From: Candidatus Fokinia solitaria
GTDB taxonomy: Bacteria; Pseudomonadota; Alphaproteobacteria; Rickettsiales; Midichloriaceae
DNA length: 32,000 nucleotides
Direction: 5' to 3'
Assembly (NCBI RefSeq): GCF_003072485.1
Contig: NZ_CP025989.1
Coordinates: forward strand, 150,001-182,000
Of the stretch, positions 16,745 to 25,464 are shown one piece after another (within the stretch, counting starts at the first letter, position 1; the number at the start of each line of letters is the position of its first letter). The translations under genes were made by a program, and so were the position numbers. The notes under the pieces are model-generated. The model made no database searches. It was not told the origin of the DNA and saw only the letters and a program-made list of their open reading frames with translations.

Positions 16745-16900
16745 GATTATTATTATGCATCTGATGGTAATTTCTTTATTTATGTTATATTAATATTTAC
16801 ACTATAAAATCGAATCATTATTGATAAAAGTTCTTTGCCTTAAGTAAGGATAATGATATCATCCTGGCATATATGAGTTTATAGAGTTTAAAATATTGAT

Positions 16901-17803
16901 ATGAAAGTTGCTACGTATGATATACAGCTTTCTGATACTTATATGATAGAGGAGTTCGTAAACTCTTTTGCTAGGTATAATGAGCATTTTTCACCTTCGT
17001 ATCCTTATTGGAGCTATAGAGCTGTACCGATGATGTATCTTGAAGATGAAGCGATTGAAACAGCGATACGAAGGTATTTTTCGCAAAATGTACTATTTGA
17101 GGTATATTTTGAAGAGCTATATAGCGTTGCGAGGTTGATGTATGTTTTGGATGCGAGAAAAATCTGTAGTGCTGCAAATTCTTTCAAGATATCTCTTAGT
17201 TTACTGGAAGGTTTATTCAATGAAAGTATCAAGAAGAGAGATTTTTGGATGCAAATGGTAGCTTTAGAGTCGAAAATAAACGAAAGCTTTACACGACATG
17301 GAGGTACTGGTTTACCGTTTTCATCAGCTAATATGCTCAATACGATAAATGATGATATACAGAGTAATAACAAAGAGAAGGTAGTAGCAAGTGAGAAGCT
17401 ACAAAAAGAAGAAAAAAGTAAAGCAGAAGTAGGATGTGTGAACAAAGTGGAAGAGTACTTTAAGAGAATATGCGAGGAGGATGAGCTGCAGAATTTAGAA
17501 GATAAGAGGAAGAAAGGAGATGATAAAGTGGCAAAGGTAGTGCAAGAAGTGGTGAAGGTAGTGCAAGAAGTGGTGAAGGAAGAAGAGCCGGTAGTGCAAG
17601 AAGGTAAGGAGGAAGAAGAGCCGGTAGTGCCAGTAGGTAAGGAGGAAGAAGAGCCGGTAGTGCCAGTAGGTAAGGAGGAAGAAGAGCCGGTAGTGCCAGT
17701 AGGTAAGGAAAGAAGAGAAGGTAGTGCAAGAAGTGGTGAAGGAAGAGGAGAAGGTAGTGCAAGAAGTGGTGAAGGAAGAGGAGAAGGTAGTGCCAGTAGG
17801 TAA
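16901..17803 (+). CDS. acidic tandem-repeat protein, N-terminal fragment (frame 2), runs out of frame inside the repeats
   Basis: 300-aa ORF with no signal peptide. From about aa 213 it has VVQEVVK x2, then GKEEEEPVVPV x3. After about 17710 the translation degenerates to EGSARSGEGRG and stops. Confidence 0.7.
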   Translation: MKVATYDIQLSDTYMIEEFVNSFARYNEHFSPSYPYWSYRAVPMMYLEDEAIETAIRRYFSQNVLFEVYFEELYSVARLMYVLDARKICSAANSFKISLSLLEGLFNESIKKRDFWMQMVALESKINESFTRHGGTGLPFSSANMLNTINDDIQSNNKEKVVASEKLQKEEKSKAEVGCVNKVEEYFKRICEEDELQNLEDKRKKGDDKVAKVVQEVVKVVQEVVKEEEPVVQEGKEEEEPVVPVGKEEEEPVVPVGKEEEEPVVPVGKERREGSARSGEGRGEGSARSGEGRGEGSASR

Positions 17804-17816
17804 GGAGGGAGAAGAG
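17537..17816 (+). repeat. in-gene tandem repeats: 21 nt x2, 33 nt x3, then 33 nt x2.8 variant units
   Basis: gtagtgcaagaagtggtgaag at 17537 and 17558. ggtaaggaggaagaagagccggtagtgccagta at 17603, 17636 and 17669. A fourth unit at 17702 is 2 nt short (ggtaagga-aagaagag). gaaggtagtgcaagaagtggtgaaggaagagga at 17717 and 17750, with a partial unit at 17783. Confidence 0.9.
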
Positions 17817-18830
17817 AAGAGGAGAGAAAGATGGGAAGGATTAAGTGAGGAGCAGAAGAAGGAAATGGAGAAGCTGCAGATTTCAGAAGAGAGAATAAAA
17901 AATATTATAGAGATACGACAAAAAGAGATTGATATATATCAGGGAAAAGATTACGACGACAAGATGATACTCATTCGAAAAAAGCTAAGTGAGAAATCGC
18001 TTCAATATGGACTACTAGCAAATCAGATAGAACAGAAGAAGTTGCTAGGAGAGTTAGATTCTATTCTGGAAATGGAAAAACAAAAGAATGAGAGAGAGTA
18101 TGAGCAATGGGTAATAAGAGAAGAGAGAGATCATGAGAAGTTGAAACATGTACAAGAGCAGGAATTGCCAAAGTTTATAATCACTGAAAACGATAGAAGA
18201 GCAGTTATAATAAAAGAGATGAGTGAGAAATCGCTTCAAGCGAACATAATAGCGGATCAAGCGTGGCAAATGGAATTAAAAGGAGATGTAGGAGGAGCTG
18301 CTGCACTTCGAAAGCAGTATCACTCTCCTCTTAGAGATGATGCTTATAAGATCAGCATGAAATTACACGATCTATACAGTATTGCTCCGTTTGCTCCTGC
18401 TAGATTAGAAGATAAAGATGTTGTGATGAAAGGAGGTACGAGAACAGATTACAGGACTTATACCTCTCCTAATAATCCAAATGTGTTATTCACTCACAGT
18501 TCAAAGAAGTTTTATAATGCATTTAAGGACGTTATACATAAGATACACTTCTGTAAACCTATGAAAGTAGGAGACTTCAATCCTTCTATATTCGAAGGTG
18601 ATAGAAAAAAGGAAATAATGGTCGCTCCTATGTGTACTTCTCCTCATTGTTGTCCAGGAACATCAGAGTTAACTCCTAGAGAGTTTTTCGTCGCAGATGA
18701 TCATTACAACAATGCCGATGTATTTACCCTCTCTACCAATGATATGTTATACACTACATACGACGGTGTAGTTCATCACAATGGCGGCATCGATTCCTCC
18801 ATACTTCATACAGATAGCGTTATATCTTAG
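17703..18830 (+). CDS. acidic tandem-repeat protein, C-terminal fragment (frame 0)
   Basis: Frame 0 opens at 17703, right after a TAG. It immediately continues the same peptide repeat (EEKVVQEVVKEEEKVVQEVVKEEEKVVPVGKE). A coiled-coil-like E/K-rich region and a Cys/His-containing C-terminal domain follow. There is no ATG until about aa 47 of the ORF-track product (its 'M' is GTG 17724), so it is most simply the continuation of 16901..17710. Confidence 0.7.
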   Translation, partial: VRKEEKVVQEVVKEEEKVVQEVVKEEEKVVPVGKEGEEKRRERWEGLSEEQKKEMEKLQISEERIKNIIEIRQKEIDIYQGKDYDDKMILIRKKLSEKSLQYGLLANQIEQKKLLGELDSILEMEKQKNEREYEQWVIREERDHEKLKHVQEQELPKFIITENDRRAVIIKEMSEKSLQANIIADQAWQMELKGDVGGAAALRKQYHSPLRDDAYKISMKLHDLYSIAPFAPARLEDKDVVMKGGTRTDYRTYTSPNNPNVLFTHSSKKFYNAFKDVIHKIHFCKPMKVGDFNPSIFEGDRKKEIMVAPMCTSPHCCPGTSELTPREFFVADDHYNNADVFTLSTNDMLYTTYDGVVHHNGGIDSSILHTDSVIS

Positions 18831-18929
18831 TTCGTCCTCGCTTCCAAGTACAGCAGCACGTATTTGGAAGCTTTCCATCTTACTTCTTCTTAGCTCCTGT
18901 TTTCCCTCTCATACTCCATTTATAGAACA

Positions 18930-20219
18930 ATGTTCTTTTCTCTTCTACCTCTTATACTCTTCTTACTATTATTTCTCTCTTCTGGCTTATACTTCTCTAT
19001 AAATGCCGTTCAGAATCCTTTCTACCAACTCTCTCCTTTACTCATAATCCTTCCTTGCATCGCTTTAAGCTGGATTCTCCATAATGGTACTTCGAAAACT
19101 AAACAATCCTCTTTCTTAAATGGCATCGCTAATCATGACATCCTCATGATGTGTATCATCTTCCTTTTAGCCGGTGCATTTAGTGAGATAATGAGTAAAA
19201 TAGGTGCAGTCTCTTCCATCGTAAATCTTCTGCTTACATTCATTCCTTCAAATCTACTATTACTTGGACTTTTCATCACCGGCGCCTTCATTTCTACCTC
19301 AATAGGCACTTCTATGGGCACTATCGCTACTCTGATGCCTTTAGCAACTGCTTTGAGTGCGAAAAGCGGGTTACAGATTGAACTAATTTCGGGCACAATA
19401 CTTGGTAGTGCAATGTTTGGCGATAATCTCTCTCTGATTTCCGATACTACAATAGCTGCTGTTTCTTCGCAAAACGCAGATCCACGAAAAAAATTCTACA
19501 TCAATGCTAAACTGGCTTTCTATTCTGCTGTAATCGTCGCAATAGTATTGCTATTTCTAGGTTTTGCAAAAGCAAATGAAATTATAGCGGTAGAAAAATA
19601 TTCTTTGCCTCTGATTATACCGTATGTTCTACTACTTACACTATCAATGTCTGGTGTAGGTATTTTTTGCAGTTTGATACTAAGTATTTTAGCAGCAGGA
19701 ATTATAGGAATTATCGCAAATCCTACTTATCACTTTTTGAATTTTACAAGCGATATCATAGCTGGATTTTACACTATGAATGAAATTATGCTTTTATCTC
19801 TCATGATTGGCGGCTTATCAGGTTTAATGGGAAATTCACTCAGTGTACTAGGTAAAAAACTTACCATTGTATTGGCAAAAAAGATGCACAATAAAAAAGC
19901 ATGCTCTTTTGCAATCGCTGTGATCGTTACGATATTCGATGTGCTTTTAGCTAATAATACAATAGCTATCATAGTAAGCGGTAAAGCAGTAAAAGATGTA
20001 GCGATCGAAAATGGCCTCCCTCCACATTATACTGCAGCAATTCTTGATGTCTTCTCATGCATCTTCCAAGGACTTATCCCTTATGGCGCTCAAGTCTTAC
20101 TTGTAAGCAGCTTTACAGGCCTTTCACCATTCATAATCCCTCAGTATGTATATTACTGCCACATCTTGCTCCTCATCTCATCTTACTTCCTTATCTCACT
20201 TCCTAAAAAGATGTCTTAA
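18930..20219 (+). CDS. nhaC: Na+/H+ antiporter, NhaC family
   Basis: 429-aa polytopic membrane protein with NhaC-like organisation (GAFISTSIGTSMGTIATLMPL, GDNLSLISDTTI). Confidence 0.72.
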   Translation: MFFSLLPLILFLLLFLSSGLYFSINAVQNPFYQLSPLLIILPCIALSWILHNGTSKTKQSSFLNGIANHDILMMCIIFLLAGAFSEIMSKIGAVSSIVNLLLTFIPSNLLLLGLFITGAFISTSIGTSMGTIATLMPLATALSAKSGLQIELISGTILGSAMFGDNLSLISDTTIAAVSSQNADPRKKFYINAKLAFYSAVIVAIVLLFLGFAKANEIIAVEKYSLPLIIPYVLLLTLSMSGVGIFCSLILSILAAGIIGIIANPTYHFLNFTSDIIAGFYTMNEIMLLSLMIGGLSGLMGNSLSVLGKKLTIVLAKKMHNKKACSFAIAVIVTIFDVLLANNTIAIIVSGKAVKDVAIENGLPPHYTAAILDVFSCIFQGLIPYGAQVLLVSSFTGLSPFIIPQYVYYCHILLLISSYFLISLPKKMS

Positions 20220-20248
20220 TATCTTCCGTAAAAGACGATTATTGTAGC

Positions 20249-20277
20249 TTCAAGTGTAATGTATATTTTCTTATAAT
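20249..20277 (+). promoter_or_regulatory. candidate sigma70-type promoter for tuf-fdxA (TTCAAG-17 nt-TATAAT)
   Basis: ttcaag at 20249-20254 and tataat at 20272-20277, with a 17-nt spacer, about 118 nt upstream of the tuf ATG. Such hexamers are frequent in AT-rich DNA. Confidence 0.3.
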
Positions 20278-20394
20278 TTATATTAAGCTGTTGATCTTAA
20301 CAGGCTCTTGCTGTAAGTTTTGAAATTATAAGTGCAGTGTGTGACGAGAGTTACATACTCATGCGGTAAATCAAATTTAAATTTGCGTAAGATA

Positions 20395-21576
20395 ATGAAG
20401 AAATTCGAACGTACCAAGCCACACGTAAACATCGGAACAATAGGCCATGTTGATCATGGTAAAACAACTCTTACTGCTGCTATTACAAAGTATTTCAGTG
20501 AGTCATTTGTTGCATACGATAAGATAGACAAAGCGCCAGAAGAAAGACAGCGTGGTATTACAATCAATACTGCGCACGTGGAGTATGAAACGAAGAATAG
20601 GCACTATGCGCACGTTGATTGCCCTGGACACGCGGACTACGTGAAAAATATGATTACTGGTGCTGCGCAGATGGATGGTGCGATACTTGTAGTAGCAGCA
20701 ACTGACGGTCCTATGCCTCAAACTAGAGAGCACATACTACTTGCGCGCCAGGTTGGTGTACCGTCAATAGTGGTATTTATGAATAAGATGGACCAAGTAA
20801 CGGATCCAGAACTTGCAATGCTTGTTGAAGAGGAAATAAGAGATTTACTTACGAAATATGGCTTTCCTGGAAAAGATATACCAATTATAAAAGGATCGGC
20901 TTTGAAAGCTTTGGAAGCTGCTTCATCTGATGCTTCAACTGGCGATGGTGCATGCATAGGGGAGCTTCTTGCAGCGGTAGATTCGTATATTCCTACTCCT
21001 CAAAGAGAACTCGATCTACCTTTCTTAATGCCTGTTGAAGATGTGTTTTCGATTTCGGGTCGTGGTACCGTTGTAACGGGACGTATTGAGAGAGGTATCG
21101 TGAAAGTTGGCGCAGAAGTTGAGATTGTAGGCTTCGGATATAGACACAAGACTGTTTGTACTGGTGTGGAGATGTTTAAGAAGATGCTTGATCAAGGACA
21201 AGCTGGAGATAATGTCGGTCTTTTATTGCGCGGCATAGCAAAAGAGGATGTGGAAAGAGGATGTGTTGTTGCAGCGCTGAACACGATAAATCCTCATACT
21301 AATTTTGAAGCGCAGTTGTATGCGCTAAGTAAAGAGGAAGGTGGACGTCATACAGCGTTTTTGAATGGCTATAGACCACAATTTTTCGTGAGAACTACCG
21401 ACGTTACTGGTACTATTCAACTTCCTGAAGGAACTGAGATGGTGATGCCAGGTGACAATGTAACGATTAATGTAGAGCTGATAGCGCCTATTGCGATGGA
21501 TGAAGGACAAAGATTTGCAATTCGCGAAGGTGGTAGAACAGTAGGTGCAGGAGTAGTATCTAAGATTATCAAATAG
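20395..21576 (+). CDS. tuf: elongation factor Tu
   Basis: 393 aa starting [26 protein letters not shown]. Motifs DCPGHADY and NKMD. The ORF-track 5-prime extension (20332) adds 21 non-conserved residues. Confidence 0.97.
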
Positions 21577-21582
21577 CTTTAT

Positions 21583-21906
21583 ATGACTCATGTAGTAACT
21601 GATAAATGTATAAGATGTAAGTATACGGATTGTGTAGAAGTATGCCCTGTTGAATGTTTTCATGAAGCGAAGAACATGCTTGTGATAAATCCTGATGAGT
21701 GCATTGATTGCGGCGTATGTGTAGCTGAATGTCCTATAGGAGCTATTCAATCTGAAATAGATGCTGAGCCTATATGGCTGGAGATAAACTCAAAATATGC
21801 TAAGAAGTTTCCTCGCATTCTCGAGAAGAAGATGCCTATGGCGGAAGCAGAGGTTTATAAGGACGTTGTAAATAAGGAAAAGTTTCTTAACGAAAATGAT
21901 GAGTAA
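21583..21906 (+). CDS. fdxA: 7Fe ferredoxin (3Fe-4S + 4Fe-4S), FdxA type
   Basis: 107 aa. [27 protein letters not shown] and [14 protein letters not shown]. Its last ~100 nt are homologous to the tail of the downstream 278-bp repeat unit. Confidence 0.93.
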
Positions 21907-22708
21907 CTTTGTAAAGATCGTTTAGATAGATTCGCAAAGATTGCTTAGATAAATGATAAGTGATTTTTACAAGGACTTCTTGAGAAAATGACTGTGTTTC
22001 TGCGAGTTTCTCGAGAAGCCGAAAGAAATTTCTGTAATAGCTTTTCCATGTGTTTATAGAGCTTCTACAATAGAGGCGCTTTATCTGTTTATAGAAAGGA
22101 TGTTACTGATGAATCGATGGTGCTGCTTTTCTCATGATGCGGTGATTTGATTACTGCGAAGTTCTTAGTGAAGATGATGAGTAACTTTGTAAAGATCGTT
22201 TAGATAGATTCGTAAAGATTGCTTGGATAAATGATAAGTGATTTTTACAAGGACTTCTTGAGCAAATGACTATGTTTCTGCGAGTTTCTCGAGAAGCCGA
22301 AAGAAACTTCTGTAATAGCTTTTCTATGTGTTTATAGAGCTTCTGTAATAGAGGCGTCCTATCTGTTTATAGAAGAGATGTTACCGATGAATCGATGGTG
22401 CTGCTTTCTTCATGATGCGGTGATTTGATTACTGCGAAGTTCTTAGTGAAAATGATGAGTAACTTCATAAAGATCGTTTAGATAGATTCGCAAAGATTGC
22501 TTAGATAAATGATAAGTGATTTTTACAAGGACTTCTTGAGAAAATGACTGTGTTTCGAGTTTCTTGGAAAAGTTACAGAAACTTCTGTAATAGCGCTTTT
22601 CTATGTGTTTATAGAGCTTTCTGTAATAGAGGTATCTTATCTGTTTATAAAAGAGATGTTACTGATGAATCGATGGTGCTGCTTTCTTCATGATGCGGTG
22701 ATGTTTGA
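21896..22708. repeat. 278-bp tandem repeat, about 2.9 copies, non-coding
   Basis: The unit start 'atgatgagtaac' recurs at 21896, 22174 and 22452, an exact 278-nt spacing. Copies 1 and 2 differ by roughly 15-20 substitutions by eye. Copy 3 has small indels and ends near 22703-22708. No ORF of 60 aa or more in any frame. Confidence 0.95.
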
Positions 22709-23022
22709 AATGGTATCTATATCTTCACAATACTGTTATTTCAAGATGTAAAGTTCAAGTTCAGACTATGTAAGAAAAACGTAGTAGATATGTTATATAT
22801 CAGTCTTATTACAGCAAAACGATGCTATATCGCAGAGCTAAGGCTATTGTTACTACTATTATGTCGCTTCTTACGATAAATATATTTGCGCGAAAACGAT
22901 AAGTAGTAAATATTGCTATCTCATTATCATCCCTTGCTTAGTTTCAAGAGATGTGCGTATATCTTTTTCTTCTATGATAAAAAAGTTATTCAAAGCTTCT
23001 GAAATTTTTCCGACTTATGAAA

Positions 23023-23060
23023 GCGACTCTGATGCGGAGTCGTACTCTTCTTTTTATTTT
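23023..23060 (+). terminator. orphan terminator-like hairpin plus T-rich tail
   Basis: gcgactc (23023-23029), loop tgatgcg, gagtcgt (23037-23043, 7 bp including one G-U), followed by actcttctttttatttt. No intact gene lies upstream, so it could be the ancestral tuf-fdxA terminator. Confidence 0.3.
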
Positions 23061-23473
23061 GAATAAATATATTTAATTATTTTTGAAGATATTAATGCTA
23101 TTTCATAATTTCGTTAGATGCTTATACATTACTTTTCTGATGATTGATGCTTTTTATCCTATGCTTTTTGCATGATTGGAAAATCTTTACAGTACCTTCA
23201 ATGCTATCATAAAGTGTGATGAGTAATAACACACTCTCTTTATGAATATATGGTAAATCATTTCTGCTATTTTATAGATTTCCAGCGTATTGTCACTGTA
23301 GTTTCTTCATCATTTGAAGATTACTTTATATGTCTTATAGTATGAAAAATGACAATATGTAATGAAAAATTTGTGAATATAAAAGAGTATAAGAAAGTAT
23401 AAGAGAATATAAGACAGTTTAAGCTGAACGAGAGCTAAGATTATGTAGAGCTTTAGGCAAAATCTTACATCGC

Positions 23474-23950
23474 ATGAAGACGTAATTGTTAGAGATTTAT
23501 TTATTGTTTACTCAAATTTGAGAAGATATTCGCTTCATAAGATATCATCTAACTTCAAATAGAAGTCCTTTTTAAGTTAAGGACAATTTTTGATACTTCA
23601 CTATGCGCTTCGAAAAAGAATATAGAACAAAACACTTTTTTGAACTTACTCAATGCATAGATAAAGCATATTAAAATGCATTTTTAATACTTGTATAAAA
23701 TATATCAGTGATAAAATTACGAATGTAAGAAAAGGATTTTTCTAGATATTTCTGCGCTTTTTATATATTTTTGCGTGAAGGATAGCGAGAAGCGCTATAG
23801 TTTCTACTCTTCAAAGAAGGGTATGCCACTTTTTTGATATCTGTTGAGGATGTATCTTCGATTTCGCATCGAGAGAAACGTTATCAAAGCTGAAGTAGAA
23901 GTTGAGATTTAAAGATATTCTTCAAAACAAGACATAACCATCACTAAGCT
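23474..23950 (+). pseudogene. tuf: eroded partial copy of tuf (relic), truncated at tRNA-Thr
   Basis: Colinear nucleotide matches to intact tuf, with many stops and deletions. 23840 tctgttgaggatgtatcttcgatttcgca matches 21031 cctgttgaagatgtgttttcgatttcggg. 23869 atcgagaga...aaagctgaagtagaagttgagattt matches 21085 attgagaga...aaagttggcgcagaagttgagattg. 23795 ttctactcttcaaagaagg matches 20990 tcctactcctcaaagagaa. 23711 gataaaattacgaatgtaag matches 20841 gatttacttacgaaatatgg. 23474 atgaaga/cgtaa matches the tuf start atgaaga...cgtaa. About 790 nt of tuf is compressed to about 480 nt. Confidence 0.65.
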
Positions 23951-23956
23951 TCTATT

Positions 23957-24031
23957 TGGTGCCGTTAGTGAGAATCGAACTCACGACCTCTTCATTACCA
24001 ATGAAGTGCACTACCACTGTGCTATAACGGC
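23957..24031 (-). tRNA. tRNA-Thr (anticodon GGT), CCA encoded
   Basis: Hand-folded cloverleaf. Acceptor GCCGTTA/TAACGGC, D stem GCAC/GTGC, anticodon stem CTTCA/TGAAG with loop TTGGTAA, T arm GTGAG-TTCGATT-CTCAC, then A-CCA. 75 nt. Its 5-prime end lies 5 nt after the atpD stop. Confidence 0.93.
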
Positions 24032-24036
24032 TACTA

Positions 24037-25464
<1,428 letters not shown>

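Follow-up and report, generated by a model that had tools for sequence, protein, structure and literature searches.

The spacer between fdxA and tRNA-Thr in Candidatus Fokinia solitaria contains a short tuf-derived fragment (23796–23912, plus strand) which is dead, with very little room for doubt, and which encodes nothing. The preferred reading, held at a probability of about 0.62 with its proposed history included, is that the fragment is a partial copy of tuf that was placed in a spacer of the F. solitaria lineage and has been decaying neutrally; that the copy was partial from the start is considered probable, though far from assured. Ca. Fokinia solitaria, a member of the Midichloriaceae (Rickettsiales), lives as an endosymbiont in Paramecium; its genome of 837 kb is reported as the smallest among Rickettsiales, and the paper describing this genome does not discuss pseudogenes, repeats or tuf (PMC5905368). 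The window, which is the whole stretch of 32,000 nucleotides analysed, has the following layout around the fragment:

18930–20219, plus strand: antiporter-like ORF
20395–21576, plus strand: intact tuf (EF-Tu, 393 aa), 100% identical to Ca. Fokinia solitaria WP_108673014.1
20986–21129, plus strand: segment of tuf matched by the fragment (codons 198–245)
21583–21906, plus strand: fdxA (ferredoxin, 107 aa), 100% identical to F. solitaria Ferredoxin-2
21884–22702, plus strand: tandem array, 278 bp × 2.9 copies
21907–23956: spacer from fdxA to tRNA-Thr, 2,050 bp, lineage-specific
22703–23795: AT-rich ORF-free DNA (~30% GC, ~1.1 kb)
23796–23912, plus strand: tuf-derived pseudogene fragment (z 8–10)
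23957–24031, minus strand: tRNA-Thr (GGU), its 3' end facing the fragment at a distance of 45 nt
24037–25449, minus strand: atpD

The intact tuf gene scores 710 bits against NCBIfam EF-Tu; within the protein collection, the EF-Tu of Ca. Fokinia cryptica comes nearest to it (98%). The fragment lies about 2.8 kb downstream of the intact gene on the same strand, and is followed on the minus strand by tRNA-Thr, atpD, an OmpH-like gene and ybeY. In both Fokinia species the only tuf gene is located between the antiporter-like gene and fdxA, and not in a str or tufB operon, while atpD is followed by tRNA-Thr(GGU) instead of atpC and preceded by the OmpH-like gene instead of atpG. Further upstream, the region 16884–18959 (ORFs 16901–17803 and 17724–18830) is purine-rich coding DNA with internal tandem repeats of 21, 33 and 130 nt (17526–17840); it gives no DNA-level alignment to its 2.3-kb counterpart in F. 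cryptica and no match to any NCBIfam family, and appears to encode a putative fast-evolving repeat protein. The plus strand opposite tRNA-Thr (23959–24031) shows a sub-threshold Rfam match to the Plastid-ycf2 5'UTR (35.7 bits; gathering score 65.7), which is almost certainly an artefact of the tRNA antisense sequence.

The homology of the fragment to tuf is established by several alignments. In a Smith-Waterman comparison of 23200–23956 with the tuf locus, the best match pairs 23796–23866 with 20986–21057 at a score of 46, as against 24.4 ± 2.6 in 300 dinucleotide shuffles (z 8.4, 0/300). The global comparison of 23796–23912 with 20986–21129 yields z 9.7 against shuffles, the values over the shuffle tests ranging from 8.4 to 10.5, and none of 500 random real segments of the window aligns as well (z 8.45). 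The blocks at 23790–23910, singled out as the best by the first-pass annotation, are thus real, with z of 8–10 against shuffles and random real segments alike. A repeat finder independently detects two colinear pieces, 21020–21062/23829–23871 (43 nt, 79%) and 21082–21126/23865–23909 (45 nt, 71%), whose offsets of 2809 and 2783 indicate a 26-nt deletion in the fragment, in agreement with the internal deletion of about 27 nt noticed earlier by eye. At the protein level, tblastn matches FLISVEDVSSISHR and RIERNVIKAEVEVEI*, which lie in two different frames, to EF-Tu residues 210–223 and 230–244, respectively, and the RIERNVIKAEVEVEI* half runs into a stop codon. Small indels accompany the 26-nt deletion, and identity to tuf is 69% over 114 aligned nt and 75% over 23830–23909.

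The fragment covers tuf codons 198–245, at the start of EF-Tu domain 2, so that the recognisable remnant amounts to about 48 of 393 codons (12%), far from the 5' two-thirds of the gene that had been described as recognisable. Past 23912 the identity to tuf falls to 34%, and the detectable homology therefore ends about 45 nt before tRNA-Thr instead of continuing up to it as first described.

The presence of dead tuf-derived sequence, with frameshifted halves, stops and indels, is consistent with the original description, as is the ORF-free character of the surrounding DNA, since no ORF of at least 40 aa occurs in 22752–24036. A Pfam search of all six frames of 22800–23956 at E <= 10 returns no match, the EF-Tu domains GTP_EFTU, D2 and D3 being undetected. 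A functional EF-Tu gene is expected to have an uninterrupted frame of about 390–400 codons, the EF-Tu domains and changes concentrated at third codon positions, none of which is found in the fragment; what is found is the set of features of a duplicate-derived pseudogene, namely similarity to a parent in the same genome, disabling lesions and no counterpart in the F. cryptica spacer. Rfam, folding, the substitution pattern and the sister species give no sign of a regulatory role.

The source of the fragment was sought among 83 tuf genes listed from an EF-Tu search of genome contigs, where the matches listed are those of unrelated bacteria at 70–75% identity. Among these 83, the own tuf of F. 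solitaria is the best match to the fragment, with a score of 51 as against 43 and 42 for the next two, which supports the local origin originally proposed.

The first-pass annotation further described a duplicated promoter and leader and a series of 5' coding matches upstream of the block, and recommended a pairwise alignment against shuffled controls. While 23796–23912 stands far above such controls, the leader and the 5' coding region remain at background in the alignment tests. For the leader, 23320–23476 against 20263–20397 has a z of −0.15, or −0.19 when the offset is kept constant; the supposed relic leader also fails to align with the region upstream of tuf that is conserved between the two Fokinia species. 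With the leader match at chance level, the argument for a segmental duplication that was drawn from it loses its basis. A part of the 'tataag' leader matches is due to a 10-nt microsatellite (TATAAGAGAG × 4.6) at 23378–23423 in the AT-rich spacer. As for the 5' coding region, the exact words do exist and are colinear with tuf (ATAAGATA, CACTATGCGC and TTACGAA), but the alignment tests are at chance: a semi-global alignment of 23287–23795 with 20240–20985 gives z −0.75 (231/300 shuffles at least as good), 23286–23795 against 20499–20985 reaches z 1.35 relative to shuffles and −0.30 relative to random real segments, band-restricted Smith-Waterman alignments upstream of the block are equalled or exceeded by 56/120 and 70/120 shuffles, and along the expected diagonals the share of windows above the 95% background level is close to the chance expectation. 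Colinear k-mer chains give a marginal signal upstream (p about 0.05–0.09), the best one reaching 72 as against 58.8 ± 9.1 at k = 7 (26/300 shuffles) and 51 as against 32.7 ± 9.2 at k = 8 (15/300 shuffles). The exact-word cluster at 23537–23695 (offset ~3000) does not rise above random real segments (76/500). A 36-nt P-loop-like match (codons 21–35) at 23250–23285 to 20456–20498, with offsets of 2794/2787 and z 3.7–4.8, was rejected as a second fragment, being a post hoc selection that does not reach significance when the search is band-restricted.

The tuf 5' leader itself (20300–20394; F. cryptica locus L081, 9960–10051) is conserved between the two species despite a synonymous divergence of about 1 per site. 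A long stem that closes immediately before the start codon is common to the folds of the two leaders (z −3.4 and −2.3), and the apical hairpin differs in sequence while its pairing is kept in both species (GUGUGUGAC-GAGA-GUUACAUAC versus AGCAUGC...GCAUGCU), so that the predicted fold may represent a structured regulatory or processing leader.

The spacer also contains the 278-bp array, with 91% matches between its copies, whose unit begins with the last 23 nt of fdxA, and copies 2 and 3 consequently carry dead fdxA stop regions. The array is young, is absent from F. cryptica, and has left no degenerate copies of its unit downstream or elsewhere in the window. This array, which starts inside fdxA, attests local duplication activity, and the spacer is demonstrably prone to duplication. 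The tuf fragment lies 1.1 kb from the array, neither inside nor directly adjoining it. The DNA between the two (22703–23795) shows no significant similarity to tuf, the 278-bp unit, any other sequence of the window or the F. cryptica locus, and tblastx of the spacer (21907–23956) against the window and the F. cryptica locus finds no relics of other genes. No Rfam family is found in the spacer, tRNA being the sole RNA found. In mid-spacer, a GC-rich hairpin of 9 bp with a T-rich run after it (23023–23043, plus strand; fold z −2.5) is terminator-like and may be a stranded terminator, judging from its predicted fold.

Comparison with the F. cryptica locus (CP110343) shows an identical gene order over 21 kb (antiporter, tuf, fdxA, tRNA-Thr, atpD), whereas the spacer from fdxA to tRNA-Thr measures 72 bp in F. 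cryptica as against 2,050 bp in F. solitaria. This is the only large length difference in the 21 kb of colinear DNA, with 2,054 unaligned nt in F. solitaria and 79 in F. cryptica. The 72-bp spacer holds a terminator-like hairpin and no tuf-like sequence, and EF-Tu is encoded at a single site in the F. cryptica genome, so that the intact second tuf which might have been expected at the locus of a relative is absent from this species. Judging from this alignment, the array, the AT-rich DNA and the tuf fragment would be either jointly specific to F. solitaria or jointly lost from F. cryptica. In Ca. Bandiella euplotis, the nearest outgroup examined, fdxA stands in an unrelated context, with no synteny by which a gain or loss of the spacer could be polarised, and searches with OmpH-like protein and antiporter alignments found no other Fokinia in metagenomes. 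Two high-scoring EF-Tu matches (P0002 and P0003) and one fdxA match (P0126) proved to be unrelated metagenome contigs.

The differences between the fragment and tuf are spread evenly over codon positions 1, 2 and 3 (11, 9 and 15 of 38 each; chi-square p 0.32), as against 13, 3 and 174 between the functional tuf genes of F. solitaria and F. cryptica, and the substitutions are AT-biased (GC→AT at 11/36 sites, AT→GC at 10/62). This even spread and the AT bias point to neutral decay. At four-fold sites the tuf genes of the two species differ by 55% (Jukes-Cantor distance 0.99), and neutral DNA shared since the split should thus be close to unrecognisable. The fragment, however, differs from tuf at only 20 of 76 sites at codon positions 1 and 2 (26%; Jukes-Cantor distance 0.32), which suggests that selection on the copy ceased around the time of the split or later. 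Of the 16 aligned positions that distinguish the tuf genes of the two species, the fragment agrees with F. solitaria at 6, with F. cryptica at 5 and with neither at 5. The fragment is equidistant from both tuf genes and thus not recent, and origins dating from the last 30% of the interval since the split are disfavoured (p < 0.02, for the youngest fractions tested); the same 6:5:5 ratio is also compatible with an origin at or before the split.

The following history is proposed. A piece of about 145 bp from the interior of tuf (codons ~198–245) would alone have been placed in the spacer, the tuf gene 2–3 kb away on the same strand serving as template. Insertion may have occurred by partial duplication or by templated break repair in this duplication-prone spacer, in the lineage of F. 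solitaria at about the time it separated from F. cryptica or later, the DNA presumably having been gained in F. solitaria rather than lost in F. cryptica. The 26-nt deletion, the small indels and about 0.3 substitutions per site would have followed.

Among the rival explanations, a duplication of the local tuf region as a whole, from the promoter and leader to at least the end of the 5' two-thirds of the gene, now decaying in place with the block as its best-preserved part, is considered unlikely, and a longer tuf copy whose remainder was deleted and overwritten is about equally so. Both draw on the colinear upstream k-mer chain, which at k = 8 is marginally above shuffles, and on the P-loop-like match, whose offsets are near the 2809/2783 of the block although it was picked post hoc. 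The whole-region duplicate should, however, have left a leader alignable to the conserved real one and 5' coding DNA above background, neither of which is seen (z −0.15 for the leader; −0.75, −0.30 and 1.35 for the coding region); the band-restricted alignments, which have multiple testing built in, are not significant, and the densest word cluster does not stand out from random real DNA. A block that is 69–79% identical predicts similar recognisability throughout, unless the rest was deleted and replaced, and with the upstream DNA at background a uniform in-situ decay of a longer copy cannot explain the pattern. Chance similarity in AT-rich DNA, which does account for the leader and 5' coding 'matches', has a practically negligible probability as the source of 23796–23912 and is ruled out there by the 0/300 shuffles and 0/500 real segments that reach its score, with two adjacent colinear matches at the protein level pointing the same way.

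An ancestral second tuf (of tufB type or an older Fokinia duplicate), erased in F. cryptica and nearly so in F. solitaria, is distinctly less likely still than the two longer-copy explanations. It would fit the equidistance of the fragment from both species' tuf genes (6:5:5) and the adjoining tRNA-Thr(GGU), and elsewhere tuf duplication is described as ancient and differential loss as frequent in the part of PMC8046335 that refers to Lathe and Bork 2001, while an Ehrlichia (Rickettsiales) gene named Tuf-2 implies a second copy (PMC5693922). The tRNA-Thr is, however, single, downstream and convergent, unlike in the tufB operon, and no secE/nusG follows the fragment, where a tufB operon would have secE-nusG-rplK, which agrees with the earlier statement that the relic is not an ancient tufB paralogue. 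Three events would be needed (one ancestral duplication and two independent losses), and death before the split predicts about 1 substitution per site, which exceeds the observed 0.32 at codon positions 1 and 2. The 3' end of a tRNA is a classical integration site, and that of tRNA-Thr borders directly on the extra DNA; yet a foreign element that inserted there and brought the tuf fragment of another bacterium is very improbable. A moderately AT-rich unrelated tuf (L029) does score 43, as against 42 for the F. cryptica tuf, but the own tuf is the best of the 83 listed at 51, no second 3' part of tRNA-Thr (an att-like repeat) occurs in the window at <=3 mismatches, six-frame translation of 22800–23956 gives no integrase or other Pfam signal, and tblastx finds nothing else across the spacer. 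Scarcely any weight is given to a functional element, such as an antisense RNA to tuf mRNA produced by read-through from tRNA-Thr/atpD or another tuf regulator: the minus-strand orientation of tRNA-Thr/atpD permits antisense transcription and folding of the minus strand gives slightly greater stability than in shuffles (z −2.1, 7/200), but the fragment has accumulated substitutions in a neutral pattern, is missing from F. cryptica and matches no Rfam family, the plus-strand fold is not significant (z −1.1), and with indels and 70% identity the fragment would pair poorly as an antisense RNA.

The partial, neutrally decaying copy of the preferred reading is a small marker of the turnover of non-coding DNA in a reduced endosymbiont genome, of little wider import, and opens no long-standing question. 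One spacer combines a young tandem duplication with an older gene fragment, and the fragment is usable as a neutral-rate yardstick or strain marker, while annotators should be cautioned that there is no second tuf in the region. A speculation given long odds is that the spacer may record active DNA gain by local duplication or template switching in what is reported as the smallest Rickettsiales genome, in which case reductive genomes would still create new sequence at hot spots; alternatively, the fragment might be expressed as an antisense RNA to tuf mRNA.

With regard to known systems, the duplicates tufA and tufB are described as subject to gene conversion and differential loss in those parts of PMC8046335 that refer to Lathe and Bork 2001 and Abdulkarim and Hughes 1996, and in the tufB operon a tRNA cluster (Thr-Tyr-Gly-Thr) stands directly ahead of tuf in the same orientation (PMC8046335). 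The Fokinia locus resembles this system in having a second tuf-related sequence in one genome, the loss of one copy being a common outcome. It differs in that the fragment is no gene, has no same-strand upstream tRNA cluster, fusA or secE/nusG, and is 69–79% identical to tuf instead of near 100%, with no sign of ongoing homogenisation, and even the intact Fokinia tuf lies in a non-canonical context (antiporter, tuf, fdxA). Relics of a tufA pseudogene are reported for cycad plastid genomes (PMC6964695). Both cases show a dead tuf remnant persisting in a reduced genome of endosymbiotic origin, but the cycad relic is reportedly what remained of the original single-copy gene after its transfer to the nucleus, whereas the fragment is an extra partial copy with a functional tuf 2.8 kb away. 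There is also a likeness to the intergenic debris of Rickettsiales. Pseudogene decay in Rickettsia has reportedly been described by Andersson and Andersson, and truncated gene duplicates beside tandem repeats in Ehrlichia ruminantium are said to have been described by Collins et al. 2005 and Frutos et al. 2006. The likeness lies in the obligate intracellular life of a member of Rickettsiales, in the long AT-rich non-coding spacer absent from a close relative, and in a truncated, frameshifted copy of an own functional gene near a young array that starts inside fdxA; the differences are that only about 117 nt of an essential translation gene are involved and that the fragment is 1.1 kb from the array. 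As pseudogene debris in a lineage-specific junk spacer, the fragment is ordinary and of a known kind.
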